Shown here: positions 5,209-19,535 of the stretch, in pieces
Layout: each line of letters opens with the position of its first letter
How positions within the stretch are numbered: position 1 is the stretch's first letter
Source: an uncultured archaeon
GTDB taxonomy: Archaea; Asgardarchaeota; Thorarchaeia; Thorarchaeales; Thorarchaeaceae
Direction of reading: 5' to 3'
Length of the DNA: 32,000 nucleotides
Assembly: GCA_964354495.1 (NCBI GenBank)
Contig: CAYHAA010000018.1
Coordinates: 19,285-51,284, forward strand
Notes under the pieces: model-generated
What the model was told of the DNA's origin: nothing
Seen by the model: the letters and a program-made list of their open reading frames with translations, nothing else
The model's database searches: none
Program-made: the position numbers and the translations under genes

Positions 5209-7122
5209 CTATCTCAGCTTTATCGTTTCGGTCACCATAGGTGCTCTTGTCTCTATGTTCAATGCTTTGTGGATAGTAGATGCCAGTCCGAGTGTCTTTG
5301 ATGCCTCACCATGAGCAACAAGAATTCGCTCAGGAGCCGGACTCACTCGTTTCACAAAGCTGAGAATCTGCTTCCTATCAGAGTGTCCGGAGAATCCCTC
5401 TACAGTGGCGACTTCTAGATTGACCTGGACAACTGTTGTCTGTCCCTCTCTGTTCTTCATATTGGCCTCTTTCCATCCCTTCTGGATACGTCTGCCCATC
5501 GTATTCTCTCCCTGATAGCTCACAAAGACTAGCAGGTTCTTCTCATCAGGGGCGAGTAGTCTGAAGTAGTCGACACTGGGACCGCCAGCGAGCATGCCTG
5601 AGGTTGCCATGATGATACATGGCTCACCCTCCACAATCTCCTCACGCTGATCAGGATTGTCGACCTGCACGAATATATCTGCTAGGAATGGATTGATACC
5701 CTGATGGAATATCATCTCACGAATCTTCTTACTGAGAGCCTCAGGATGTGTAGTATGGATTGCAGTGGCTTGCGCAATCATTCCTTCAATATATACAGGT
5801 ATCTTGGGAATGCGCCCCTTGGATACCAAGTCCTCAATGACAAGAATGATCTCCTGTGCACGACCGACTGCAAGAACGGGGATGAGGACCTTGCCACCAC
5901 GTTCTAGGGCTCTCTTCAATATCGTGGCGAACTTTCTCTCCACTTCTTGCCTAGGAGGCATCCTATCAGTAGGATGTCCGTAAGTGCTCTCTATAATGAG
6001 TGTTTCAAGTCTTGGGAATGTGAAGGTAGCTGGTTCAAGTAGTCTGGTCCTTCCAAACTTGAAGTCCCCAGTGTATGCCATATTGTACTGTCCATCTCCG
6101 ATATGGAAGTGGACAATTGCTGAGCCAAGTATGTGGCCTGCATTGTGCATGGTGAGTCGTACATCGGGGGCGATATCGGTCACTTCTCCATAGTTGAGGG
6201 AGATTGTGTGAAGGATTGTCTCTTTCACATCACGGTCGCGGTATGGCCTGAGCTTGCCCTCTCGCTCTGCGACATCAATGTAGTCCAGCTGCAGCAGAGT
6301 GGCTAGATTCAGAGTTGGTGCAGTCATGTAGACTGGTCCACGGTACCCATACTTGAAGAGGAATGGGACCATCCCTGAGTGGTCCAGATGCGCATGTGTG
6401 ATCACTACCGCATCCAGACTTTCGACATTGAACTCGGGCATATCGAGCCTTGGAAATGCCTTGCTGGGCGCTCCCACGTTCACGCCACAGTCAATGAGGA
6501 TATTGCTCTCAGAGGTCTGCAGGAACATACATGACCTTCCGACCTCTCTGAAACCTCCCAGGGCTGCAAGTCTAATCCAGCCATTATTGAAGAGCATAGG
6601 CCTGTGTATTCGCCGGCCAATCTCACGGAATGACTTGTTTCTTGTTGCTGCCTCTGATTGAATGATGTAGCGAACCTGTTTTATCAGCTTGCTCTCAATG
6701 GGAGGAGTTCGCATGACATTTGGCCGCCAGAATGTCTGACGAGTGATCTCTCTGAGCGTGGTCCCACTTCGTCCAATTACAAGGCCTGGTTTCTGTGCTT
6801 CAATGATTACCTCACCTCGAGAGATGTCGAAGTCTATCGTGGTTATCTCAGCCTCTGCTGGTACCAACTCACGAACTGCCTTCTCAGTTTCTTCGTGTGT
6901 CAACCTGACATCAGGAGCAGATCTGACAACAATGCGTTTTCGCATCTTGCGAGCAAGTGCCTTTATGCTATCGCCATCATCCAGCAGTATCTTGGGAGCC
7001 TTGGAGTATATGGCTATCTCAGGTCCCTCATATTCGACTGAGGTGACTGCGGCTGAACGAGGAAGTGCCTTCTTGATTTCCTCTCTGATATCTACATATG
7101 CGTGTTCATCATTGGACTGCAT
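5209..7122 (-). CDS. cpsf1: KH-domain beta-CASP ribonuclease aCPSF1 (transcription termination factor FttA)
   Basis: Two N-terminal KH domains (VEYEGPEI; KPGLVIGRSG), MBL motifs DCG, THAHLDH, AGHILGS, TGD and beta-CASP motifs ESTYG, SGHSD, HGE; adjacent to psmB as is usual in archaea. Confidence 0.95.
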   Translation of the reverse strand: MQSNDEHAYVDIREEIKKALPRSAAVTSVEYEGPEIAIYSKAPKILLDDGDSIKALARKMRKRIVVRSAPDVRLTHEETEKAVRELVPAEAEITTIDFDISRGEVIIEAQKPGLVIGRSGTTLREITRQTFWRPNVMRTPPIESKLIKQVRYIIQSEAATRNKSFREIGRRIHRPMLFNNGWIRLAALGGFREVGRSCMFLQTSESNILIDCGVNVGAPSKAFPRLDMPEFNVESLDAVVITHAHLDHSGMVPFLFKYGYRGPVYMTAPTLNLATLLQLDYIDVAEREGKLRPYRDRDVKETILHTISLNYGEVTDIAPDVRLTMHNAGHILGSAIVHFHIGDGQYNMAYTGDFKFGRTRLLEPATFTFPRLETLIIESTYGHPTDRMPPRQEVERKFATILKRALERGGKVLIPVLAVGRAQEIILVIEDLVSKGRIPKIPVYIEGMIAQATAIHTTHPEALSKKIREMIFHQGINPFLADIFVQVDNPDQREEIVEGEPCIIMATSGMLAGGPSVDYFRLLAPDEKNLLVFVSYQGENTMGRRIQKGWKEANMKNREGQTTVVQVNLEVATVEGFSGHSDRKQILSFVKRVSPAPERILVAHGEASKTLGLASTIHKALNIETRAPMVTETIKLR

Positions 7123-7243
7123 GGATAATCACATCACAATTTTAGGCCTATTTATGCCCCATATTGCCTGATATTGCACCCAACTCTTCGTCGGGTGAGA
7201 TGTAGCGCAAACTAGTGAACTACAATTGCAACAAGTACTGTCA

Positions 7244-7897
7244 CTATGGTCCTTTCCAGATCTTCATGATGGCGTCTTTTGGAATCTCTTGATAGCCGTC
7301 CTTGTCAATCACGCTGACCAGAATTGAGTTGCCCGTAGCGGCGTCTCGTTCAATGGCAGCTGCAATGGCACGAATAGCCAGCTCAATCGCCTTTTTCTTT
7401 GGAAGATCGTCTTTGTACTCGACCTCCAGAACACCAAGTGCTACTGGTGAACCAGAGCCATTTGACACGAACTTGTCAGGAATCACTGATCCCACAAAGT
7501 CCGTGTAGTACACTTGTGGTCCTTCATCATCGAAGCCTCCAACAAGACTTCCCAGCATGTACGCCCCACGAGCTTGAAACATGATGTTACTGAGCAGACG
7601 TGTCAATGCTTTGACACGAATTGGCCGTCCCCTCTGAATCTCAAAGAGTTTGGCCTCTGCAGCTAATAGTTCCATGATTGATTGGGCATCTGCGACAGAT
7701 CCTGCAATGGTTGCACCAATACGATTCGTGATCTTGTAGATCTTCTTCGCTGTCTTGGACGCAATTAGAAAACCCATTGTGGCTCTCTGATCACTTGCCA
7801 AGACTACGCAGTCCTTAGCAATCATGCCTATTGTTGTAGTGCCCGTACTTAACTCAGCCGGGGGATGTACGTCAGGTTCCATGGTAACAAACTCCAT
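7244..7897 (-). CDS. psmB: Proteasome beta subunit
   Basis: Propeptide ending STG followed by TTTIG (Thr1 nucleophile), ASDQRAT, KKIYKI, AGSVADAQ, GSGS and ERDAATG. Confidence 0.96.
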   Translation of the reverse strand: MEFVTMEPDVHPPAELSTGTTTIGMIAKDCVVLASDQRATMGFLIASKTAKKIYKITNRIGATIAGSVADAQSIMELLAAEAKLFEIQRGRPIRVKALTRLLSNIMFQARGAYMLGSLVGGFDDEGPQVYYTDFVGSVIPDKFVSNGSGSPVALGVLEVEYKDDLPKKKAIELAIRAIAAAIERDAATGNSILVSVIDKDGYQEIPKDAIMKIWKGP

Positions 7898-8009
7898 CTA
7901 GAAGAAGAGTCATAGAGAACAAGTGACAAGCACCCGTTCTTTGGTGCATTATTAAGGTTTTCTCAGTGAACATTCCTGTCATCGACGGACGAAAAGGTCA
8001 ACCTGCTAC

Positions 8010-8840
8010 TCAGGTCTGGTTCTCTGCCTTCCGTTCTGGACGCTTGAATGTTGTGACAATCTTTACTTCGTCAATGTCTTCGTCGGCCTTTAGAATATCT
8101 GCCGCTATACCTATCTCTCCGTACTGGATGTTCTCAATATATCGAGTTTCCTGTGGAAGTTCAACGGTTACAACCTTCTTGCTGTGGGTGATACTGTATC
8201 TGTCCTCAGGTATTCCAGGGATTCTTCGCCTTAGGACTGCCTGAAGCTTCTTGATATTCTCGGATACAATCTCTCGGATAGTGACATCGTAGACAAGGGT
8301 CTTTCCAGCGAATGAGCTGTTGAAATCGACTCTGACCCGACGACCAAGGTCCGCGGTGACAAAGCCCCGTTCTTTGCCAAACTTAATCTCTTCGCCCTTG
8401 TAGCCTTTTGCACCCTGCTTTGCAAGCTTCACCTTTGCAATCAGTTTGATCTTGTTGGGATCTCTGGGCCCTGCACCTTTTTCTGGAGGGATCTCAATAG
8501 TCTTCGATTCGCCGACCTTCATACCAATGAGCTGTTCTTCAACTGCCGAGAGGAGCCAGTTCCAACCAACTACAACAAGTGCTGGTTCGTAACGGTCATT
8601 CTCTCTGAACAGGCCCTCTTTCTTTGCAACCTCGAGAAGCGTTGTATCGTATACAATACCATTATCCTTTGTCTTCGCAACGAAATCAAGATAGACCATG
8701 CTCTTGTCGCTTACGAGGGTCTCAACCTTAGCTGAGTCCTCTTCTTGAGCCTTGGTCGTCTTCTTTGTCGTCTTCTTAACGGCTGGTTTTTCCGCTGCCG
8801 CTTTCTCGGCGGCCTCTTGGGTTGCTTCTTTCTCAGTCAT
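8010..8840 (-). CDS. slyD: Long-type archaeal FKBP/SlyD-like PPIase/chaperone with divergent active site
   Basis: VYDTT, LIGMKVGESKTIEIPPEK, IF-domain insert, RVRVDFN..AGKTLVYDV, plus the archaeal C-terminal extension. Confidence 0.82.
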   Translation of the reverse strand: MTEKEATQEAAEKAAAEKPAVKKTTKKTTKAQEEDSAKVETLVSDKSMVYLDFVAKTKDNGIVYDTTLLEVAKKEGLFRENDRYEPALVVVGWNWLLSAVEEQLIGMKVGESKTIEIPPEKGAGPRDPNKIKLIAKVKLAKQGAKGYKGEEIKFGKERGFVTADLGRRVRVDFNSSFAGKTLVYDVTIREIVSENIKKLQAVLRRRIPGIPEDRYSITHSKKVVTVELPQETRYIENIQYGEIGIAADILKADEDIDEVKIVTTFKRPERKAENQT

Positions 8841-8891
8841 GGCCAGTTCCCTCTCAAGTTTCCGGACTATCTAAGGTCCTCCACTGGAGTG

Positions 8892-9497
8892 TTATAAAAC
8901 GGTTTCCTTTTGTCCTCGGAAGATGCCTCTGAGTACTTGTATCTTCTCGAAGAACAAGGATTTCTCTGCGATACGCTCGACCTGAAATCCATTGTTTCTG
9001 AATGCCTTCATCACAGCGCTCGTGTCTGCAAGGGTCGAAACAACGACAAAGAGTTCTCCTCCCTCGATGAGGTGTCGAGAGGCCTGACCGATGAACTTCT
9101 GTGTGAGTTCACTGCCGAGTTTTCCTCCGATGAGTGCATGGTCCATCATGGTGGAATTGCCATCTGCAGGCAGATAGGGTGGATTGAAGAGAATAATCGA
9201 GAATCTACTTCTGATGGAAATAGCAGAGAGAAGGTCTGATTGAACAACCCCTGCAGTACGCTCCATGTTGTTTCTCTTGAGGTTTGCAGCTGTATTCTTT
9301 GCTGCATCAAGCGATATGTCAATCCCCACAACACTGCTTGCCTTGGATGCAGCAATGACGGTTCCTAGTCCTGCGCCACACCCGACATCTAACACGCTGT
9401 CTTCAGGCTTGAAATCAATCGCGTCAAGGAGGAGGTAAGTGTCGTCTGATGGAGGGTACACACCATCAGAGACATCGATTTCAGGATGCTCTCTCAC
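8892..9497 (-). CDS. hemK: HemK2/PrmC-family N5-glutamine methyltransferase (probably acting on release factor aRF1)
   Basis: VYPPSDDTYLL, SAM motif VLDVGCGAG, DIS and FNPPYLP. Confidence 0.88.
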   Translation of the reverse strand: MREHPEIDVSDGVYPPSDDTYLLLDAIDFKPEDSVLDVGCGAGLGTVIAASKASSVVGIDISLDAAKNTAANLKRNNMERTAGVVQSDLLSAISIRSRFSIILFNPPYLPADGNSTMMDHALIGGKLGSELTQKFIGQASRHLIEGGELFVVVSTLADTSAVMKAFRNNGFQVERIAEKSLFFEKIQVLRGIFRGQKETVL

Positions 9498-10416
9498 TTC
9501 TCAGCCCTCTTGGATCTGGAATTCTTCCTTCCTCTATCGAACCAAGAATCGAGTCAGCAAGGACCACAAGGTCTTCAATACCGATATTCCTCAATCGGTC
9601 GTCGCCCTTGGGGTGTCCAAGACAATTGTGAACTATCTCCTCAGCGAGGCTCTTTTCCACTCCTATGTTTCGAAACCATATTCCAAGAGCCTTCCTGAGG
9701 GTCTTGTTTGGATACGAGTACAGCCCTGTCACCATCCAATGGAACACATCATCACGCTTTGCACGAGGCCCTTGTGTTCTATGCTTCATCCTCACTACAA
9801 CGGAGTCAACCTCCGGCATGGGGTAGAACATGGTTGCTGGAACGTCCATGAGACGGTCCACTTCTGCTTGGTACCTGATATTGATTGTGAGCCGTGAGTA
9901 GTCCTGCGTTCCTGGGTCTGCATGCAGCCGCTGTGCGAACTCCTTCTGATACATGAGTACTGCCTGATTGAATCTATGCTCGCGCAACAGCCTGAATGTT
10001 ATCTCTGATGAGATACTGTAGGGAAGATTGGAGACCACCTTGGTCGTTTCCGGGAGGGCAATCACCAGAGCATCACCCTCGATGATGGTGATGTTTTCAT
10101 GCTCCCTCAGCAGGTCGCGGAGAGCCCTTGCAAGTCCTGCCTCCAGCTCAATCACATGTACATGACCTGCCCTATGCGCAATCTCTTCTGTGAGAATGCC
10201 GAGTCCTCCCCCGACTTCCAATACCGTATCGTTTCTCGTGACATCTGCAGCAGCCACTATGTCTCGGGCAACAGCTCTGCTCTTTAGAAAACTCTGCCCC
10301 AGTTTCTTGTTCGGTCTCACCCCATATTTCCTGAGTAGCGATTGAATCTCATTGTCAGACAGAGACTTCACCTGAATGTTCACAGTTCTATCGTCGTGGT
10401 CGACGTTCTCGTTCAT
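9481..10416 (-). CDS. rsmA: 16S rRNA m6,6A dimethyltransferase KsgA/RsmA (Dim1)
   Basis: KKLGQSFL, VLEVGGGLGILT, IELE, GDAL, VVSNLPYSIS, YQKEFAQRL and FYPMPEVDS. The start is uncertain (ATG 10416 or GTG 10371). Confidence 0.93.
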   Translation of the reverse strand: MNENVDHDDRTVNIQVKSLSDNEIQSLLRKYGVRPNKKLGQSFLKSRAVARDIVAAADVTRNDTVLEVGGGLGILTEEIAHRAGHVHVIELEAGLARALRDLLREHENITIIEGDALVIALPETTKVVSNLPYSISSEITFRLLREHRFNQAVLMYQKEFAQRLHADPGTQDYSRLTINIRYQAEVDRLMDVPATMFYPMPEVDSVVVRMKHRTQGPRAKRDDVFHWMVTGLYSYPNKTLRKALGIWFRNIGVEKSLAEEIVHNCLGHPKGDDRLRNIGIEDLVVLADSILGSIEEGRIPDPRGLRSERAS

Positions 10417-11011
10417 GCTCTTCGTCGTCTCGTTTTGGAGGCCGCACAAAAATCCAGCGCTTGACGTCCTCTCGGAGTTCCTCAACTATCCTGGCTGTCA
10501 CGGCCTTCTTGGGATTCTGAAGTTTCGTCCTTGCTGCAATGTCATCAAATGTCTTGAAGGGTTCTCGCTTTCGTTCTTCCAGAATTGCCCACATCAGCGT
10601 TTGGCCTATTCCGGGAAGCAATTGAAGTGAATGCTTTCTTGTGGTTAGTGGAGCTGCCTCATTGAAGAACTGCACAAACCTATGCTCGTGTTTTGTCACA
10701 ATCATCTCCACGACAAGAGGTAGCTCGGTGGCACTCTCGGGAGCAAGATCCTCGTAGAGTATTCGCCTCTTGACATGATCAATCTTACCCTTTGAGTTCT
10801 GTTCGATTGAGACTCTCTCCTGGGAGTGCAGCTTGACACCTCTCTCGGGCATCATCTCGAGGAGTGTAAAATGAGACTCGCCAATACCCTGTGCTATTGG
10901 CTCGCCGCGAGGTCTGGAGTCCCTCAGGTACTCTTTTGGAGGAATGACTGACAGGACGTATGCATGTGTCTCGAACATCCTGTTTTGTTGTCCTTCCAAC
11001 CATGACCACAT
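10388..11011 (-). CDS. DUF655 putative RNA-binding protein
   Basis: AQGIGESHFTLLEM, FVQFFNEAAPLTTRKHSLQLLPGIG and PFKTFDDI; sits in the conserved rpo4-DUF655-rsmA order. The start may be the ATG at 10978. Confidence 0.88.
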   Translation of the reverse strand: MWSWLEGQQNRMFETHAYVLSVIPPKEYLRDSRPRGEPIAQGIGESHFTLLEMMPERGVKLHSQERVSIEQNSKGKIDHVKRRILYEDLAPESATELPLVVEMIVTKHEHRFVQFFNEAAPLTTRKHSLQLLPGIGQTLMWAILEERKREPFKTFDDIAARTKLQNPKKAVTARIVEELREDVKRWIFVRPPKRDDEEHERERRPRR

Positions 11012-11134
11012 CCGGTTATACTGGAGTACATTGTGGTATTGGTCTTCGGCAACGGATAAAAACTAATCGGACCAAGAAGCAGTCCTCGGCCTTCTGGCAC
11101 GACTGCTCGTGGGATTAAGATATGTCTATACTGT

Positions 11135-11470
11135 CTAAGATCGGCTCTTGACCATCAGGTCTAGAACCTCGATGAGTTTCTCATCGGTGAAACTCGTCAG
11201 GCGGGTATCGAAGATGGACTTCAATTCCTCCACCGTGATAGGAGCAATATTCACGATTTGGACTGCTTGGGACCTCGTGACGCCATAGCTTTCTATCAGC
11301 TTCTCGACAAGCTTTGTAGCTACTGCAGGTGCCATCCTCGAAAACGTTGTGGCATGTTCGAGAGTTATCGACTGCTGAAAAGACAGTTCTCCCTCTTTTG
11401 CTCGTTGGGCCAAGACTTTCTTGACCTGTGGAAGAGTGATTTCTTCCTCACTGATTATCTCCTTGGGCAT
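11135..11470 (-). CDS. rpo4: RNA polymerase subunit Rpo4 (RpoF)
   Basis: IISEEEITLPQVKKVL, LSFQQSITLEH and AVQIVNIAPITVEELKSI; directly downstream of rpl21e. Confidence 0.9.
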   Translation of the reverse strand: MPKEIISEEEITLPQVKKVLAQRAKEGELSFQQSITLEHATTFSRMAPAVATKLVEKLIESYGVTRSQAVQIVNIAPITVEELKSIFDTRLTSFTDEKLIEVLDLMVKSRS

Positions 11471-11479
11471 TTCTATCCC

Positions 11480-11776
11480 TCAATTCTTATTGACTCGGAG
11501 ATGCTCAGGTCTAATGATGAGGCTTCTCTTGGCTTTCCCTATGCCGACATCGACAAGAACGGCTCGCCCACGAACTCCAGTGGCGATTCCCGTCTTTCCC
11601 TGATATCTCTTATGAGGCATACCCTTGTGGAAAGCTGAATCGATGACGATATTCACACGCTGGCCTGCTTCATATTGAACGAGTACATTGTCTGGTGAGC
11701 TCACGCCCTTCTCACGCACTCTCTTGGTCATGAGGGCACGTGTACGGACTCGGTATCCATGACTCTTCTTTACCAC
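11480..11776 (-). CDS. rpl21e: 50S ribosomal protein eL21
   Basis: SHGYRVRTR, FHKGMPHKRYQGKTG and IIRPEHL. Confidence 0.96.
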   Translation of the reverse strand: MVKKSHGYRVRTRALMTKRVREKGVSSPDNVLVQYEAGQRVNIVIDSAFHKGMPHKRYQGKTGIATGVRGRAVLVDVGIGKAKRSLIIRPEHLRVNKN

Positions 11777-11851
11777 AAGTCATCACTACGAATTACTCTC
11801 TCTCGAGTGCTCTGCCTGAGCTGAACTACACTCGAGGTCCAGCATGACCTC

Positions 11852-11876
11852 TTGGGTCACCACTTAAGGATTTCGC
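11852..11876 (-). promoter_or_regulatory. Putative BRE-TATA promoter of the rpl21e-rpo4-DUF655-rsmA-hemK operon
   Basis: Minus strand GCGAAATCCTTAAGTGGTGACCCAA: a purine-rich BRE-like CGAAA followed by CTTAAG, about 90 nt upstream of the rpl21e start. Confidence 0.5.
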
Positions 11877-11903
11877 AACAGTCACTCTTTTCGAGAAGTG
11901 GCA

Positions 11904-13301
11904 TCAGCGCTCGTCACTGTATATTGCAGTGACATTAAGCTCCTTACAAACACAGCCTGTTCCAAGCACTTCGGCGATAGACGGCTTGGTCCTTCCTGCA
12001 TCTCCTGAGATGAGCTCCTTGATGTACGTACCACCTTGGACCTTGAAGAATGCTTGAAGAGTACCATCTCTCTCGCGTGTCATGCGAATCTGGTGAATCC
12101 GTTTCTTTCTCACCAAGTCGCTCCTTCGATGAGAGACTCGATTCGGAGTCCTCTGTTCAATCACAACATCCTGAAACAACTGAACTACCCTCTGGATCGC
12201 ATCATCAGTCACGGGATTCTCAGTCTGGATGACTGCAGCATATTCCTTGACATTTGATGATGCATCCTCCTTCAGTTTCTGCAGGCGATGCCTGTCAGTA
12301 AGTTCCAAGTCCTGAACTTCGATTCTACCCCCGGCCTCGCTGTTAATAGTCCGGGTTAAGGCTTGGAGGTCTGGTTTCCGTACTCGCGGCTGTGTCACCT
12401 CGACAACAAAGGGTCTCCCCTTGCCCAGCATGAGGACATCTACATCCTCTCTACCTGCAGCATGGAACTTGAAGCGAGAGCCATATGCAAGGCGCTGTGC
12501 ATGAATCCCAACATATTCTGATATTGAGTCTGGGTACTTCCTTCCGGTTCCGCCACAATCATCACAGCCCCTACCCTTGCACTTCTTACAGTCCCATCTA
12601 CTCTGAGGCACACCTCGGACCAACTTCCGATATCTCCCGTAGATGAATACTGGATTGATCTGCAGTCGCACCTCATCTTGATTCATATCATAGATGAACA
12701 CGGCATCCGGTTTCTCAAAGTCTACGGGCTTTCCCAATAGCTCCTGTAATTGAATGCCTGTTAGACGATTGAAATGTGACTTCAAGGTCTCTGAGTGCAG
12801 AGTCGAGTATGTTGCAGTCATCTCATCTTGCCGCTCTACTAAGAGGGGCGAAGGTATTGATCCCGCAAGGACAGTCTCGAATTCGACCTGACCTGCACAT
12901 TCAGCCATCCGTCGAGCAATCATCGGGATTCTATCAAATATTGAGCTACCGTCAATGAAACATAGGTGACAGCTATCTCTCGTCACATAGTCGATTGAGT
13001 TCTTAGTTGCGATGGCCTGTGCAGGAGCAAACATACCATTGCCAGCAAGGGTCTCAATGGAATGCCTTCCTGCGTCACTGTCCTCGGACTTAAGCTGGTC
13101 ATCGGCAATCATACATAGGATTAGCTTAATGGAATGCCCCCGGTCCTCATTGGATGTTGCAGTGCCCAACCACGCGAATTGCCGGCCTAGACATCGATCG
13201 CAGAGAGTGTGCTGATTGAGCATCTCTTGTGCAGTTTTCAGCATACCATATTCATCAAGATTAGTCATAGGCCTTGACCTCTTGCCGCTCCTGACGGGCA
13301 T
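11904..13301 (-). CDS. pus10: tRNA pseudouridine(54/55) synthase Pus10
   Basis: LCDRCLGRQF, YGRYRKLVRGVPQSRW, catalytic FHAAGREDVDVLMLG, GRPFVVE, EQRTPNRVSHRR and GGTYIKELISGD. The start may be 13268. Confidence 0.95.
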   Translation of the reverse strand: MPVRSGKRSRPMTNLDEYGMLKTAQEMLNQHTLCDRCLGRQFAWLGTATSNEDRGHSIKLILCMIADDQLKSEDSDAGRHSIETLAGNGMFAPAQAIATKNSIDYVTRDSCHLCFIDGSSIFDRIPMIARRMAECAGQVEFETVLAGSIPSPLLVERQDEMTATYSTLHSETLKSHFNRLTGIQLQELLGKPVDFEKPDAVFIYDMNQDEVRLQINPVFIYGRYRKLVRGVPQSRWDCKKCKGRGCDDCGGTGRKYPDSISEYVGIHAQRLAYGSRFKFHAAGREDVDVLMLGKGRPFVVEVTQPRVRKPDLQALTRTINSEAGGRIEVQDLELTDRHRLQKLKEDASSNVKEYAAVIQTENPVTDDAIQRVVQLFQDVVIEQRTPNRVSHRRSDLVRKKRIHQIRMTRERDGTLQAFFKVQGGTYIKELISGDAGRTKPSIAEVLGTGCVCKELNVTAIYSDER

Positions 13302-13305
13302 CCAT

Positions 13306-14517
13306 TCATAAAAACGGATTGATATATCTAATAGCTCGAAGTCCCAATAGGACCATCCGAGGGTCTGTCACTAGTCTCTTTATGACTTTCCCCTGAAGGT
13401 CCATATCCCCTTCGCTCTTCACAACATCAAGAAGTCCTAGTTCTGCCGCATCCTTGATGATGGAGTCTAATCCCTTGTCGCTCAAGGATGACAGAGCTCT
13501 CTGCGTCAGATACATTGCACGCAGTTCATTGAAGACCATGGACTTGCATTGTTTCTCATATTGTTTGATGCTTCCTACTTTAGCGTCTTGAGAGAGAGCT
13601 TCAGCAACCGCCTTACCTGCTATTCTCGCTGTGATTCCCCCCAAGATTACGCCCCCACCAGTTGTGGCCTTCACAATGCCTGCAGTATCACCCACGGCCA
13701 GAACATTCCGATGAGTCAGCTTCGCAATAGGCATCCCGACTAGCACAATACCCCCAAGTGATCGTTCAATCTTTGCGCCCTCTAACCTCCTAGCTAGTAT
13801 CTTGTGATGGGCAATGAGTGCATCGAGACGTGCCCTTGATTTGTTTCGAGCTGCTAGTCCTACTCTGGCTCTTTTCTCTCCTAGCGGTATGATCCAAGCA
13901 AAGAATCCCGGCGCGACATTTCGTCCATAGAACATCTCCACCATATCGTCATCAAGATTGACACCTGAGACTTCATACTGGAATGCCGGATACTTGCTAG
14001 ACTTCTCCACGGCAGGAAGCCCCACACTTCTCGACAAGCGACAACGAGAACCCTCGGCAATGATGAAGCATTTCGATTTCAGTTCATTCTCATTCTTCTC
14101 ATTGACCCGAATTGTCCGGACTAGGGCGCCTTCTCTAGTGAATCCTGTTGCCTTGGCATTGGTTGTAATGTCTACTCCTGAATCTATCGCTCTATTTGCA
14201 ACCCATGCATCAAAACGTCTTCGATCGATAACACACGCCTCTCTTTCTGCCCGCTCAATGGTCACGGAATTGCCCGAGGGAGAATAGATTCTCGCACCCG
14301 ATACCGTGTTCTGTATGATGCCCTCTGGCATTCGCAGTCCTAAGCGTGCGAGTCCTGATGTGCTGAGAAGTCCTGCACAGTGGTCTGGCTCGCCAACACG
14401 CTCATGTTCCTCTACCACACGAACATGGAACCCTCTCTTGGCTATCTCTGTCGCTGCAAAGAGACCTGCTGGCCCAGCGCCAATGACAAGAGCATCATAA
14501 TCCATTGTTGTACCCAT
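13306..14517 (-). CDS. Geranylgeranyl reductase-family FAD oxidoreductase (DGGR-like)
   Basis: Rossmann motif VIGAGPAG, CAG, IDRRRFD, APGFFAWIIP and AVGDTAG...GGG. Confidence 0.85.
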   Translation of the reverse strand: MGTTMDYDALVIGAGPAGLFAATEIAKRGFHVRVVEEHERVGEPDHCAGLLSTSGLARLGLRMPEGIIQNTVSGARIYSPSGNSVTIERAEREACVIDRRRFDAWVANRAIDSGVDITTNAKATGFTREGALVRTIRVNEKNENELKSKCFIIAEGSRCRLSRSVGLPAVEKSSKYPAFQYEVSGVNLDDDMVEMFYGRNVAPGFFAWIIPLGEKRARVGLAARNKSRARLDALIAHHKILARRLEGAKIERSLGGIVLVGMPIAKLTHRNVLAVGDTAGIVKATTGGGVILGGITARIAGKAVAEALSQDAKVGSIKQYEKQCKSMVFNELRAMYLTQRALSSLSDKGLDSIIKDAAELGLLDVVKSEGDMDLQGKVIKRLVTDPRMVLLGLRAIRYINPFL

Positions 14518-14577
14518 TCAGACATGCCGAGGGCACGTTTTTAACTCTCCCCTCAGAAGAGCTTTGGAGCGCCCACG

Positions 14578-14946
14578 ATGATAGCAGGGAAATTCCAGTA
14601 TAAACAGGTCATTGCTGTCAGAACTGACCTTGGCATGAGCAGAGGGAAGATGGCAGTGCAGGTGGCACACGGGTCGCTGAGTGCTTCGGAGAATGCCCGT
14701 GTCGCACACCAAGATATCTGGCATGCCTGGTATAGAGAGGGTCAGAAGAAGGTTGCAGTCAAGGTGTCCTCTGAGGAGGAGCTCTTGGAACTGAGAAGAC
14801 AGGCAATAAACCACAGACTGCCGCATGCTTTGATTCGCGATGCTGGAATGACCGAGCTACCTCCTGGAACAATAACAGTCTTGGGTATTGGCCCTGCAAA
14901 GTCTGAAGTCATGGACGGAGTCACCGGAGATCTCAAGCTACTATAG
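14578..14946 (+). CDS. pth2: Peptidyl-tRNA hydrolase 2
   Basis: YKQVIAVRTDLGMSRGKMAVQVAHGS, GQKKVAVKV, IRDAGMTELPPGTITVLGIGP and VTGDLKLL. Confidence 0.96.
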   Translation: MIAGKFQYKQVIAVRTDLGMSRGKMAVQVAHGSLSASENARVAHQDIWHAWYREGQKKVAVKVSSEEELLELRRQAINHRLPHALIRDAGMTELPPGTITVLGIGPAKSEVMDGVTGDLKLL

Positions 14947-14956
14947 AGGGATTTTG

Positions 14957-16297
14957 GTGAAGGAAGGTCACCCTTTTGAAAAGCCATTTGGTATGGAGTT
15001 CTATTCCACGGACAGCATCGGAATCGGTGGCAGGCTCAAGAGGAGATACGAGGACTTCCTGGTAGAGGAGATTGCTTCCGATGGAGTAGTAATCAGTTTC
15101 AAAGACTGGCAAGAGAGACCAATCAGAGAATCAGTCATTGCAGGGAAGAGAGATAGGTATGTTATCTTCACGGTTCAAAAGATGGGCATCTCGACTATGG
15201 ATGTTTCAAACATACTTGCATCGTCACTGAAGCTTCCGCGGAATTTTGTCTCATATGCTGGGTTGAAAGATAAGCGTGCGATTACAGTCCAACAGATGTC
15301 AGTTTCCTCTCAAGCAGCAGGTGAGCTGACAAAGCTAGAACTCTCACGGATAGATCTTCGTGATTTTTGTTACACTCGCCATCCTCTTCAGATAGGTGAT
15401 CTCTGGGGGAATAGATTCACAATCATCCTTAGGGATCTGGAAGCTGACCGTGTCACGGCAACACAAGCAGTGGAAGCAGTCCGAGGAACTCCTCTGCTCA
15501 ACTATTTTGGAGTTCAACGGTTCGGACTTCCTAGACCCAGCACTCATCTTGCGGGGAAATCTCTCATCAAACGAGACTTCGAGGAAGCAGTCCGAATCAT
15601 GCTCTGTACTGAAAGTGCATTTGAGTCAGAGGAGCTGAAGCAGGTTCGGCTGAGACTGACTGAAGACCTCACGCCCACGGAGAATATGATTCGCGCCTTT
15701 CCAAGAGACCTGAATTATGAACGGACCGTCTTGACTGAACTCATCAAACATCCTGGTGAATTCGAACGTGCTCTGCAGAGGGTGCCACCACGTGTTCTCA
15801 CATTGATGGTGCATGCCTACCAGTCCTACCTCTTCAATCGTCTTCTCAGTCAGCGAGCAGCTGCGAAACTATCCCTTGTCCAGCCAATACCTGGTGACTT
15901 CATGATTGAACTGGACACGACCCACTCAGGGCGCGATTCGTGGCTCTTCGTGACTGAGCGGTCATTGGAGGAACGAATCAAGCAGGTAGAAGTGGGAAAA
16001 TATGGACTGGCGCTACCGGTACTAGGGTACACGACTCGACTTCCGCCAACTCCACAGACAGACTCACTCAGGGCGCTCATGAAAGAAGAAGGCATCACAC
16101 TTCGGGACTTCAGAGACCCAAACACAAGGTCTCTCGACTCGCCGGGAGGGCTCCACCTCGCAGCGATTCTGATAGATGATCTTGATGTATCGTTTGTTGA
16201 TGAGGGTCTCCGGGTTGTATTCAGCCTGAGAAAGGGATCATACGCAACAGTAGTTCTGCGCGAACTAATGAAGAACCATCCAATCAATCGAGTATGA
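14957..16297 (+). CDS. truD: tRNA pseudouridine(13) synthase TruD
   Basis: EDFLVEEI, catalytic YAGLKDKRAITVQ, GDLWGNRFTI, NYFGVQRFG, HAYQSYLFN and FSLRKGSYAT. Start trimmed to the GTG at 14957, just after the pth2 stop. Confidence 0.95.
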   Translation: MKEGHPFEKPFGMEFYSTDSIGIGGRLKRRYEDFLVEEIASDGVVISFKDWQERPIRESVIAGKRDRYVIFTVQKMGISTMDVSNILASSLKLPRNFVSYAGLKDKRAITVQQMSVSSQAAGELTKLELSRIDLRDFCYTRHPLQIGDLWGNRFTIILRDLEADRVTATQAVEAVRGTPLLNYFGVQRFGLPRPSTHLAGKSLIKRDFEEAVRIMLCTESAFESEELKQVRLRLTEDLTPTENMIRAFPRDLNYERTVLTELIKHPGEFERALQRVPPRVLTLMVHAYQSYLFNRLLSQRAAAKLSLVQPIPGDFMIELDTTHSGRDSWLFVTERSLEERIKQVEVGKYGLALPVLGYTTRLPPTPQTDSLRALMKEEGITLRDFRDPNTRSLDSPGGLHLAAILIDDLDVSFVDEGLRVVFSLRKGSYATVVLRELMKNHPINRV

Positions 16298-16304
16298 TTC
16301 GCAG

Positions 16305-16892
16305 CTACCTGGAACGCTGATCCTCTATCTCTTTCATGCGTTCCTCAAACTCGTCTTTAGTCTCTTCGTCTTTCACTATTCTCCTCCGATCATCTCGGAA
16401 TTCGAAGAGAACAGACTCGTTCATGATAGCTGAGATGATGAATCGAAGCTCCTCCTTACTGTACTTGATTCTCTCCCTGTCTGCTTCTCGGAGTATGACA
16501 ATGCTCTCCCTCGCTCCATCTGGTGAGTGGAGACTATTGACGCCCACCTCATTTGCTGGAGAAATGAACTCTCTGACCACAGTCCGTAGTTTCGCAGGTC
16601 CCTCTATGACAATGAGCTCCCCGAATCGCTCAGTCATCTCATGAGTCAAGGACTCCTCTGAGAGTAAGAGCTCCTTATTCTTCTTCTTCACCACGAGGAC
16701 CAGGCGGTTTCCTGCCTTGGCTGCTTTCAAGATAACCAGGTTCTCAAGATTCGGATGTTCCTTTTCCCTGTCCAGTAACCATTTGCTGAACTCGATGTCG
16801 AATTTTGTGATTTCCCCTCGTTCAAGCCTAGCTTGGCAGTTTGAGCATAACATATCAGATTCTACATCAAAGTTGCAGACCGGCAGTCGCAT
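16305..16892 (-). CDS. Archaeal NusA-like KH-domain protein with N-terminal Cys cluster
   Basis: MRLPVCNFD...MLCSNCQARLERGEITKFDIE matches the N-terminus of the archaeal NusA-like (second NusA paralog) family as I recall it; degenerate KH-like core. Confidence 0.65.
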   Translation of the reverse strand: MRLPVCNFDVESDMLCSNCQARLERGEITKFDIEFSKWLLDREKEHPNLENLVILKAAKAGNRLVLVVKKKNKELLLSEESLTHEMTERFGELIVIEGPAKLRTVVREFISPANEVGVNSLHSPDGARESIVILREADRERIKYSKEELRFIISAIMNESVLFEFRDDRRRIVKDEETKDEFEERMKEIEDQRSR

Positions 16893-16958
16893 TTGTTCTT
16901 CCTCGCCAGTTTCGAAGGCTCAGTAGAAACTGGACTTCGGGTGACAACATAAATGCAT

Positions 16959-17297
16959 CTATTTTGAGAGTGTTATGTCAATGGTTGACACATTCAGGTC
17001 GCTGCCTTTATCCGTCTGGACCGTGGTAGTGTCGATCTCAATATGCTTGACTGAGAGACCCTCTATGAATCTGTGTCTAGTGATCTCTGCAACATCGACA
17101 GCGCGGCTGATGAGCCGTCCTCTTGCCTTTATGACGACTTCTGTTGCGCCCTTATTGAATAGTGTCACACAAGCCAGTACATAGGACATGACATTCTTGT
17201 TACCAACTAAGATGCAGTCCATGTTGTTGTTTCCCCGCAGTTCCTTTTCTTCAGTTTTCTTACTGCTGGGTCTCTTTCCAGTGCTTTCCTCCGTCAT
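16959..17297 (-). CDS. albA: DNA/RNA-binding protein Alba
   Basis: [33 protein letters not shown] and VSTIDITL; charged N-terminal extension. Confidence 0.95.
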
Positions 17298-17489
17298 GCG
17301 AACTCTCTCCGCCTACTACTGGGACCTACTCTTAGTGATGAGTCGTACCTTCCTTATGTAGATTTTGTAAAGCTATAGGCCTCAAGGGCATGTGTAAACC
17401 AAGAAAAATCTGTTTTGGTCTTCACAAGGATACCTTTGCAAACCTTTTTCTTGGCCAGACAGTGGCGTGCAGCTGGATGTTGTCTGCAG

Positions 17490-18755
17490 ATGGCGAAACT
17501 AACATTTCTTGGTTCCTGTAGAGAGGTTGGCCGTTCTGGTTTTTCCCTTGAAGAAAAGGATGAGAGCTTTCTTGTAGACTTTGGTGTCAAGTTTACAGAA
17601 CCTCCTACATTTCCTGATATGATACCAACAGAGGGCCTTCAGGGAGTCGCTCTTACACATGCTCATCTTGACCATTCTGGAGGTATTCCATTAATCCTTA
17701 AGGCGACCGAGGCATCTCTCTTCTGTACGCCAGCGACCCGTGATCTAAGTATCCTTCTTCTTCGCGACATGTACAAGATATCACATGGTAGATTGCCGTT
17801 CACTCTCAAGGATATTGCCGCTATGCGGAAACAATGTCAGTCCACATCATACGAGGAAACCATGCCCATTGGTCGTCATTTCGAGATGACCCTCTTCAAT
17901 GCAGGACATATACCCGGCAGCGCCATGGTTTCAATCAGAGTGGATGGCAAACGAATTCTATTCACTGGGGACTTCAATGCAACTGAAACGCATCTCAATC
18001 CTGGTGCCAGAAAGAATCTTCCGAAACATGATATTGTTGTGACGGAGAGCACCTATGCTCGTCGTATCAACCCTCCGCGACAGGCCACCGAAGAGGCCCT
18101 CATTCAGACGGTCATCGAGACCGTCGAACGTGGGGGTACTGTTCTCATTCCTGCCTTCGGTGTGGGCAGAAGTCAAGAGATCCTGTGCATCCTAGAAGGA
18201 GCGAATCTCCCCAAGAAATACCCAATCTATATCGATGGAATGGCACGCGCTGTCAACGAGATACTTGTACGCCATCCTCAATATCTGCAGAGCCCTCAAG
18301 CGCTTCAGAGAGCTGCAGGGCGTGCGCTCATCATCAACGACGACCGCGACCGAAGAAATGCGGTAAAACCGGGCAGCGTCATCGTTTCGCCTGCAGGCAT
18401 GCTCAAGGGCGGCGCATCAACTCTCTATTTCAAGATGCTTCATGATGACCCTAAGAACGCGATTGTGTTCGTGAGCTTTCAGATTCCAGGCACTCCTGGG
18501 GAAGAGCTTCTCCGGACAGGAAAGGTCATGGCAGGGAATCGTGTGTACAAGGTGGCTGCAGATGTCCGTCAACACCATCTATCATCACACTCTGACTCCA
18601 GAGGTCTGCTAGATATGCTGACGATGATACCCGGTGAGCCTGAATTCTACCTAGTCCATGGCGAGTCTGAATCCTGTGATGCACTTGCTGAGAAACTGGA
18701 AAAACGAGGAAAGAAGGCTCATGTCGCAGAGCTCAATCAGAAGATAGTATTCTAA
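17490..18755 (+). CDS. beta-CASP metallo-beta-lactamase ribonuclease without KH domains (aCPSF1b/aCPSF2-like)
   Basis: LTFLGSCREVGRS, DFG, THAHLDH, AGHIPGS, TGD, ESTY, GRSQE, SSHSD and VHGE. Start trimmed to the ATG at 17490. Confidence 0.9.
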   Translation: MAKLTFLGSCREVGRSGFSLEEKDESFLVDFGVKFTEPPTFPDMIPTEGLQGVALTHAHLDHSGGIPLILKATEASLFCTPATRDLSILLLRDMYKISHGRLPFTLKDIAAMRKQCQSTSYEETMPIGRHFEMTLFNAGHIPGSAMVSIRVDGKRILFTGDFNATETHLNPGARKNLPKHDIVVTESTYARRINPPRQATEEALIQTVIETVERGGTVLIPAFGVGRSQEILCILEGANLPKKYPIYIDGMARAVNEILVRHPQYLQSPQALQRAAGRALIINDDRDRRNAVKPGSVIVSPAGMLKGGASTLYFKMLHDDPKNAIVFVSFQIPGTPGEELLRTGKVMAGNRVYKVAADVRQHHLSSHSDSRGLLDMLTMIPGEPEFYLVHGESESCDALAEKLEKRGKKAHVAELNQKIVF

Positions 18756-18998: not shown

Positions 18999-19021
18999 TG
19001 GTGGGCCGGGGGAGGTTTGAA
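18999..19021 (-). other. Isolated tRNA-3'-end-like fragment (T loop, T-stem 3' strand, acceptor 3' strand, ACCA)
   Basis: Minus strand TTCAAAC-CTCCC-CCGGCCC-ACCA, preceded by TGGAG (imperfect T-stem partner, 3 extra nt); no 5' half nearby. Confidence 0.5.
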
Positions 19022-19210
19022 TCACTCCAGCGCGACTAATTCGGAGGTCAATTGCTTGCGTTATAACTGTAACGATAGGAATTATGATGTCCTTCCAATC
19101 TGTCAACTGCGAAGAGGGGAAGACAACGCGACTACGGGGACATTTGTGGACAGGGAGCTCCTTGAACAAATCCTTAGCTAAATCAGTAAAGCCGCATGAT
19201 AGCGTCATTC

Positions 19211-19216
19211 TTATAA
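19211..19216 (+). promoter_or_regulatory. Putative TATA box of tRNA-Val
   Basis: TTATAA ends 27 nt upstream of tRNA nucleotide 1, a typical archaeal spacing. Confidence 0.6.
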
Positions 19217-19267
19217 CTACTAAATTCCCGAACGCAGTGTATGGGCCGGTGGTCTAGACCGGTTATG

Positions 19268-19297
19268 ATTGGGTCAGACTTCTTGACCTTCTAACAC
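19268..19297 (+). other. tRNA intron 1, D arm, position 23/24, 30 nt
   Basis: Central helix GTTA (19262-65)/TAAC (19292-95), 3-nt bulges TG|A and AC|A, intron hairpin GGGTCAG/TTGACCT. The intron-side helix is offset by two mismatches (relaxed BHB). Confidence 0.82.
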
Positions 19298-19311
19298 ACG
19301 TCGCCTTCACA

Positions 19312-19375
19312 TGCGAAGTTCAATATCGAGCTTGGATTGAAAAAAAAACCAGACTCGGCTGTGCTTCTCTGGAAG
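19312..19375 (+). other. tRNA intron 2, canonical position 37/38, 64 nt
   Basis: Central helix TTCA (19306-09)/TGGA (19370-73), bulges CA|T and AG|C, intron helix GCGAAGT/GCTTCTC with one mismatch, inner hairpin CGAGCTTGG/CCAGACTCG with an A-rich loop. Confidence 0.9.
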
Positions 19376-19396
19376 CGGCGAAGGCCACGAGTTCGA

Positions 19397-19426
19397 TCAT
19401 TTCGAAACCACTTCGAAATGGAACAA
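19397..19426 (+). other. tRNA intron 3, T loop, position 58/59, 30 nt
   Basis: Central helix GTTC (19391-94)/GAAC (19421-24), bulges GA|T and AA|A, perfect 9-bp intron stem CATTTCGAA/TTCGAAATG with loop ACCAC. Confidence 0.88.
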
Positions 19427-19535
19427 ATCTCGTCCGGCCCACCATCCTGATCATCATTTTCTGCTTTCTTGTTTCCCAAATGCCGATTATTCATGCGGTG
19501 AGGTCTGCCAGACCGGGATCAACAAGTGAAACCTC

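Follow-up and report, generated by a model that had tools for sequence, protein, structure and literature searches.

The window analysed here is a stretch of 32,000 nucleotides from a thorarchaeal metagenome assembly (G000) of 3.30 Mb in 51 contigs, with 97.7% completeness and 3.8% contamination. At 19243-19444 (+) it carries a 202-nt tRNA-Val(CAC) gene, in which four exons of 25, 14, 21 and 18 nt alternate with three introns of 30, 64 and 30 nt. In total, 124 of the 202 nt (61%) are intron.

Exon 1 (19243-19267, +) comprises the 5' strands of the acceptor and D stems, the D loop and the first two nucleotides of the D stem 3' strand (Sprinzl 1-23; we assigned the numbering ourselves, placing 17a and 20a in the D loop). 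It is identical to the exon of the G017 orthologue; most other orthologues differ by one nucleotide, with C in place of A16. Intron 1 (19268-19297, +; 30 nt) interrupts the D arm between positions 23 and 24 with a relaxed BHB motif built around a central helix; compact orthologues have no insert here. Exon 2 (19298-19311, +) provides the remainder of the D stem, position 26, the 5' strand of the anticodon stem and the loop up to position 37, including the anticodon CAC. The 64-nt intron 2 (19312-19375, +) occupies the canonical site 37/38 and has a full hBHBh' motif. Exon 3 (19376-19396, +) extends from position 38 over the 3' strand of the anticodon stem, the variable loop and the 5' strand of the T stem into the T loop up to A58, where intron 3 (19397-19426, +; 30 nt) follows between positions 58 and 59, with a BHB motif composed of a 9-bp inner and a short outer helix. 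Exon 4 (19427-19444, +) completes the T loop, the T stem and the acceptor stem with their 3' strands, and ends with the discriminator A and an encoded CCA (19442-19444).

Removal of the three introns leaves a 78-nt tRNA-Val(CAC) that already carries its CCA end. This product and the intron share had been proposed in an initial annotation made from the sequence alone; its coordinates and sequences proved exact, and the 61% follows from counting. ARAGORN accepts the spliced 78-mer as tRNA-Val(cac) over positions 1-78 with a regular cloverleaf, which includes a 7-bp acceptor stem, D, anticodon and T arms, U8, G18G19, U33, T54-T55-C56 and A58. The intron-less orthologue L020, which is 1 nt away from the spliced product and serves here as a stand-in for it, reaches 65.1 bits against the Rfam tRNA model (RF00005; gathering threshold 29).

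About 30 nt upstream of tRNA position 1 lies a TTATAA box (19211-19216, +), probably an archaeal TATA element. In six aligned syntenic loci TTATA (19211-19215) and the C at 19217 are invariant while the remaining upstream flank varies, so that both position and conservation point to a probable promoter role. Downstream, a T-rich trailer (19457-19474, +), recognised by reading the sequence, is a probable transcription stop; such trailers follow most tRNA genes of the genome.

The gene is situated beside a cluster of RNA-processing genes (window 5209-18755), which encodes FttA/aCPSF1 (5209-7122, -), Pus10 (11904-13301, -), a TruD/Pus7-like protein (14888-16297, +) and a second beta-CASP nuclease (17415-18755, +); the latter is a conserved neighbour of the Val(CAC) gene across the genus. 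Additionally, we observed a tRNA-like 3' end at 18999-19016 (-), about 230 nt upstream of the Val gene, consisting of a T-arm remnant followed by CCGGCCCACCA. No convincing 5' half for it could be found up to 330 nt in the 5' direction on the same strand.

Boundaries and BHB motifs of the three introns

In each of the three introns all four pairs of the central helix form: GTTA/TAAC in intron 1, TTCA/TGGA with one G-U pair in intron 2, and GTTC/GAAC in intron 3. Two 3-nt bulges on opposite strands flank every central helix, and cuts after the second bulge nucleotide give exactly the junctions described above. The three BHB introns claimed in the initial annotation, with their 4-bp central helices and 3-nt bulges, are thus all present, with the flanking helices of introns 1 and 3 being relaxed. 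In intron 1, the bulges TGA and ACA are combined with an outer helix of 2 bp and an inner hairpin that starts only past two mismatches. Intron 2 uses the 5-bp anticodon stem as its outer helix and has one mismatch in the inner helix. Intron 3 has the bulges GAT and AAA and an inner helix of 9 bp; its outer helix of 2 bp pairs in a shifted register, in competition with the T stem. A strict hBHBh' motif, defined by flanking helices of at least 2 bp contiguous with the bulges, is found for intron 2 only; introns 1 and 3 were assigned to the relaxed class because of the offset of the inner helix in the former and the register competing with the T stem in the latter. The motif of intron 3 takes up G53-C56, so recognition of this intron is incompatible with a complete T stem. 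When the T-loop segment (intron 3 plus flanks) is folded on its own, the minimum-free-energy structure contains the T stem and not the central helix. Inspection of the 64-nt intron 2 by eye revealed neither a C nor a D box.

The same three boundaries emerged from the initial annotation, from a blind BHB search and from an alignment that makes no use of the motif. For the blind search we wrote a SPLITS-like solver, which collects BHB candidates within a span closed by a 7-bp acceptor stem and NCCA, demands a central helix with 4/4 pairs and keeps those intron combinations that yield a cloverleaf. Applied to the 202-nt span, it gave just one solution, with the boundaries of the initial annotation. 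The motif-free alignment, in which long gaps are free, used L020, the intron-less Val(CAC) gene of a congeneric genome, as the 78-nt reference. The exons aligned with a single mismatch, and the inserts fell after linear positions 25 (30 nt), 39 (64 nt) and 59 (30 nt); position 59 appears instead of 60 because the boundary of intron 3 slides by 1 nt. Sliding by this one nucleotide, an A, leaves the product unchanged, so intron 1 could be placed at 23/24 or 24/25 and intron 3 at 58/59 or 57/58; the BHB motif fits at 23/24 and 58/59 alone. When each boundary was shifted by -6 to +6 nt, a 4/4 central helix was obtained at shift 0 only. A 4-bp central helix is formed by 273 (2.1%) of the 13,034 possible pairs of start and end within the gene, and hence the chance of finding three out of three at independently fixed boundaries is about 1e-5.

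tRNA set and splicing enzymes of the genome

Neither ARAGORN, in plain and in intron mode, nor the Rfam families at gathering thresholds report a tRNA at this locus in the unspliced window, and a search of the whole genome with the Rfam tRNA model did not find it either. This bears out the expectation of the initial annotation that standard annotation would probably miss or truncate the gene. The Rfam model is also blind to the single-intron orthologues L005 and L006. Over the whole genome, ARAGORN finds 14 intron-less tRNAs and the Rfam tRNA model 26 candidates above threshold, many of them 100-140 nt long. Our solver resolved 28 tRNA genes: ten without intron, eleven with one, six with two, and Val(CAC) with three. 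This census is a partial one, with about 38-40 tRNA genes recognised out of roughly 46 expected; the about 6-8 expected tRNAs that were not found may be encoded by more heavily disrupted genes.

Nearly all tRNA genes of the genome encode the CCA end, and most contain introns similar to those of Val(CAC). Most of the resolved non-canonical introns are 28-30 nt long and share one architecture, in which a single nucleotide is followed by a hairpin of 9 bp with a loop of 5 nt, a 4-nt strand of the central helix and 2 nt. The T-loop introns of several tRNAs, in this genome and in the genus, end in GAAC-A-A, where GAAC pairs with the conserved GTTC of the T arm. Second genomic copies of the three Val(CAC) introns were sought with blastn-short, which gave only matches of 10-17 nt at chance level; the genome thus shows no sign of a multi-copy mobile intron in this search.

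A second copy of the gene, including an intron-less one as considered in the initial annotation, was looked for with ARAGORN, the Rfam tRNA model, an exon-pattern search and a scan for CAC anticodon arms; none of them turned up another Val(CAC) gene in the assembly (97.7% complete), although a copy disrupted still further might escape such searches. The Val paralogues are also interrupted, as seen by motif-free alignment to a compact Val(GAC) reference. The Val(GAC) paralogue (G000:C28:12154-12293, -) has a 32-nt insert of unrelated sequence at the D-arm site of Val(CAC) and a 30-nt insert at 37/38. In the Val(TAC) paralogue (G000:C6:37023-37133, -) one 33-nt insert lies 3' of the anticodon loop. 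For this insert and the D-arm insert of Val(GAC), parsing by hand and with the solver yielded no clean BHB.

The EndA families PF01974 and PF02778 match exactly two ORFs of the genome, one of 188 aa (G000:C7) and one of 212 aa (G000:C6). The best solved relative of the 188-aa protein is the catalytic alpha subunit of A. pernix (3P1Z_B, E 1e-42), to which it aligns without gaps across the Crenarchaea-specific loop (CSL): VEKPR aligns with IRKPK, and K44/R46 correspond to K/K. The active-site Tyr, His and Lys are kept; at the aligned His, the near-identical A. pernix chain 3AJV_B has an Ala. In the 212-aa protein, which has an acidic tail at its N-terminus, Asn replaces the His expected ten residues past the conserved Tyr by comparison with the M. 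jannaschii EndA. Judged by this missing catalytic His, it is probably the structural beta subunit. RtcB is encoded as well. Looking into the EndA subunit architecture, as the initial annotation had advised, thus revealed one catalytic and one structural-type single-unit gene. Close relatives of EndA alpha are found in Candidatus Thorarchaeota records (best match isolate OWC2, 93% identity); the organism is an Asgard archaeon, as the initial annotation had presumed.

It is the loop and K44 that enable the A. pernix enzyme to cleave D-loop and relaxed motifs in vitro (PMC3241643). Homology would therefore predict an (alpha-beta)2 heterotetramer with a broad substrate range for the enzyme of the present genome. 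Of the broad-specificity EndA that the initial annotation had postulated, the two-gene layout with a loop linked to broad specificity is found, and the range itself is a prediction from homology.

The Val(CAC) locus across the genus

We compared the locus among 28 species-level genomes of the genus, with G000 being the genome of the window. In most of these 28 genomes Val(CAC) adjoins the same beta-CASP paralogue, and the genes were therefore regarded as orthologous. A syntenic Val(CAC) gene with none, one or two introns is found in 19 other genomes, the mature sequences being near-identical; the G017 tRNA is 100% identical to that of G000. Intron number at this locus thus ranges from zero to three, with a patchy distribution across the genus. 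According to motif-free alignment, G000 has introns in the D arm, the anticodon loop and the T loop. The D-arm intron occurs alone in G012, G011 and G008 and together with an anticodon-loop intron in G013. G017 and G009 carry the T-loop intron only, and G007 combines it with one in the anticodon loop. An anticodon-loop intron is the sole one in G016, G018, G022, G015, G024, G003, G021 and G002; in G004 the only intron lies in the variable region, and G020, G005 and G023 have none. The comparison with related assemblies that had been suggested in the initial annotation hence shows the same intron sites recurring, and the compact orthologues confirm the exons.

Exons are conserved between orthologues while flanks and introns diverge. 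Homologues of intron 1 are present at the same D-arm site in G012, G013, G011 and G008, those of intron 3 at the same T-loop site in G017, G007, G009 and G007b, where the central helix is kept. The hairpins of these D-arm and T-loop introns vary by pair-preserving or compensatory changes (G-U to A-U or U-A in intron 1; A-U to G-C and G-C to A-U in intron 3), and the 4-bp central helices stay intact. The 37/38 introns of the relatives belong to several unrelated types of 29-45 nt, or are absent; the 64-nt intron of G000 is unique among them.

In a nucleotide tree of FttA, G000 is the sister of G012 (SH-aLRT 99, 96% identity). On this tree the three intron sites require at least 4, 7 and 3 changes, which are minimum counts from a single gene and do not give the direction of change. 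Such a distribution shows frequent intron turnover at the Val(CAC) locus within the genus. The initial annotation had gone further and assumed active intron gain, which is only partly borne out: intron content does change often at the orthologous locus, and these changes may stem from gain, loss or allele exchange alike.

The sister genome G012 (L002/L053, G012:C38) shares the flanks with G000 and has an intron 1 that is one substitution apart. It lacks introns 2 and 3, and its T arm differs, with the stem CCCGG/CCGGG. The 3' half of the G000 gene, including the T-loop intron, matches that of the more distant G017. The combination of flanks and intron 1 shared with G012 and a 3' half matching G017 suggests recombination between alleles, inside the tRNA gene. 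From this we tentatively propose that tRNA introns of this genus turn over about as fast as its species diverge, in part through exchange of whole alleles or half genes rather than by de novo insertion, an idea that we consider possible but less than likely.

Two further loci were observed in the genus set. G007 has a second Val gene (L079, G007:C38) of about 169 nt, with three inserts, in the D arm, the region of the anticodon loop and the T loop at 58/59, and with CAC or GAC as anticodon; since L079 is triply interrupted as well, this layout is not unique to G000. In G011, a 5' half resembling that of a Val gene, with an intact anticodon arm and the anticodon TAT (L054, from G011:C20:48306 onward, +), lies 2.5 kb from the Val(CAC) gene. 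No T arm was recognisable in the roughly 200 nt behind it, and L054 may represent a fragment or a split gene, or else a gene interrupted by a very long insert.

Proposed splicing of the Val(CAC) precursor and known intron-rich tRNA genes

We are confident that 19243-19444 is the single functional tRNA-Val(CAC) gene of the genome, the precursor of which is spliced by EndA and joined by RtcB. In this model, the conserved TATA-type promoter would drive synthesis of a precursor of about 200 nt with three BHB introns, at 23/24, 37/38 and 58/59. A heteromeric (alpha-beta)2 EndA with the loop on its catalytic subunit would cut within both 3-nt bulges of each motif, at six sites altogether, and RtcB would ligate the four exons to a 78-nt tRNA that already ends in CCA. 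Gene structure, motifs, enzyme genes and the conservation of exons beside variable introns are observed directly; transcription, cleavage, ligation and any order of intron removal at this locus are deduced from the motifs, the encoded enzymes and the patterns of selection. A search of sequencing runs listed no RNA run carrying the locus, and the one RNA run compared with the stretch (X17) gave no match to it, which speaks neither for nor against expression; among DNA runs, none contained more than 13% of the sampled words.

Relaxed BHB motifs in two of the three introns and a locus that standard tRNA finders do not see would also be expected of a decaying tRNA pseudogene, in which some or all of the inserts stay in the transcript. 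GUG might be read by tRNA-Val(UAC), and the Val(CAC) gene might accordingly be dispensable. Decay is nevertheless very unlikely in our view, as the exons are 0-1 nt away from those of intron-less orthologues whereas flanks and introns diverge, compensatory changes preserve central helices and intron hairpins, and the promoter box is invariant. Moreover, no further Val(CAC) gene was found, and most tRNA genes of the genome have similar introns. If the gene is functional, its non-canonical inserts could still be handled in a way that departs from classical EndA splicing, with ordered removal, a cofactor, or inefficient removal that leaves little mature tRNA. The use of G53-C56 by the central helix of intron 3, which is incompatible with the T stem, and the preference for the T stem when the T-loop segment is folded alone could be taken in this sense. 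T-loop introns ending in GAAC-AA, however, recur in several tRNA genes of the genome and the genus, which argues for a routinely used site, and the CSL-bearing EndA of A. pernix cleaves relaxed motifs in vitro (PMC3241643); we therefore give such special handling only a very slim chance.

One or more inserts might, on the other hand, stem from assembly or binning, through chimeric joins of strains that differ in their introns. The sequence is indeed a metagenome assembly in 51 contigs with 3.8% contamination, and wetland strains with other intron combinations exist. A separate wetland metagenome contig of 1,880 nt, however, has all three sites filled in one molecule. It covers 19201-19311 and 19371-19461, including both the D-arm and the T-loop intron, and has 24 other letters in place of 59 nt of intron 2, resulting in a 29-nt intron; its intron 1 shows four differences, each of which either turns a G-U into an A-U pair (two cases) or lies in the hairpin loop. 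The presence of the three-insert layout in this second assembly argues that it is not an artefact of the G000 MAG. Each insert also has counterparts at its site in other species whose genomes were assembled independently, and both flanks are collinear with the sister genome G012, so that an artefact has next to no probability. A functional gene with a spliced precursor thus remains our preferred interpretation.

Whether such an intron combination had been reported was left open in the initial annotation. Multi-intron tRNA genes of Asgard archaea, with up to five introns, and a loop-bearing (alpha-beta)2 EndA have already been published (PMC11291895; PMC5829648; 10.64898/2026.10.13.758758), and this possible novelty falls away: the Val(CAC) gene is a clear new example of a gene layout already described for Asgard archaea. 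In Atabeyarchaeia and Freyarchaeia, introns were reported in 92-95% of the tRNA genes, with several introns in more than half (PMC11291895). A 2026 preprint on Asgard tRNA genes (10.64898/2026.10.13.758758) describes up to five introns per gene, D-arm introns missed by annotators and many reconstructed gains. It regards EndA as a permissive background, not as an explanation for the sites at which introns accumulate, and sees in how BHB introns are gained and lost the main problem still to be solved. Kaneta et al. (2018, PMC5829648) had assigned to Asgard archaea an (alpha-beta)2 EndA with an L1 (CSL) insert, in a survey that included Thorarchaeota SMTZ1-83, and noted incomplete tRNA sets that hint at undetected disrupted genes; the EndA genes of G000 agree with that assignment; their report contains neither a gene-level description of a triple-intron Val(CAC) gene nor a within-genus comparison. 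We found no gene-level account of this Val(CAC) gene or its within-genus series in the literature.

Like G000, the Atabeyarchaeia, Freyarchaeia and Jordiarchaeia have several BHB introns per gene (Valentin-Alvarado 2024, PMC11291895; Goswami 2026, 10.64898/2026.10.13.758758), many of them in D and T arms, and their presence or absence varies among relatives, as it does in the genus of G000. Unlike these three focal Asgard families, G000 is a Thorarchaeote, a class that is not named in the main text of 10.64898/2026.10.13.758758. The intron load of G000 seems to be lower than in the three families, as suggested by 14 intron-less genes among about 40 recognised in our partial census. For the Thermoproteales (Pyrobaculum, Thermofilum), which belong to another phylum, tRNA genes with as many as three non-canonical introns are reported (Sugahara 2008, Fujishima 2010, as cited in 10.64898/2026.10.13.758758). 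As described there, they resemble G000 in having up to three short BHB introns and an (alpha-beta)2 EndA with the Crenarchaea-specific loop. Related introns recur across their tRNA genes, which has been read as transposition, whereas the introns of the G000 gene are without a second copy. The A. pernix enzyme (APE-EndA) resembles EndA alpha of G000, with a gapless alignment across the CSL and basic residues at the K44/R46 positions (PMC3241643). The D-loop intron of A. pernix pre-tRNA-Thr(UGU) is a demonstrated substrate, cleavage having been shown for A. pernix only (PMC3241643).

For the organism, the sole tRNA found with the GUG-specific anticodon would need three splicing events, two of them at relaxed non-canonical sites. 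In Asgard MAGs, tRNA genes go undercounted, and gene loss should not be concluded from an "incomplete tRNA complement". The main added value of the present analysis is the series of zero to three introns at the Val(CAC) locus, since one syntenic gene varying in this way within one genus lends itself to clean comparisons of how BHB introns are gained and lost. If introns indeed turn over as tentatively proposed above, this syntenic locus in 28 genomes would be a tractable natural system for studying how BHB introns arrive and depart.
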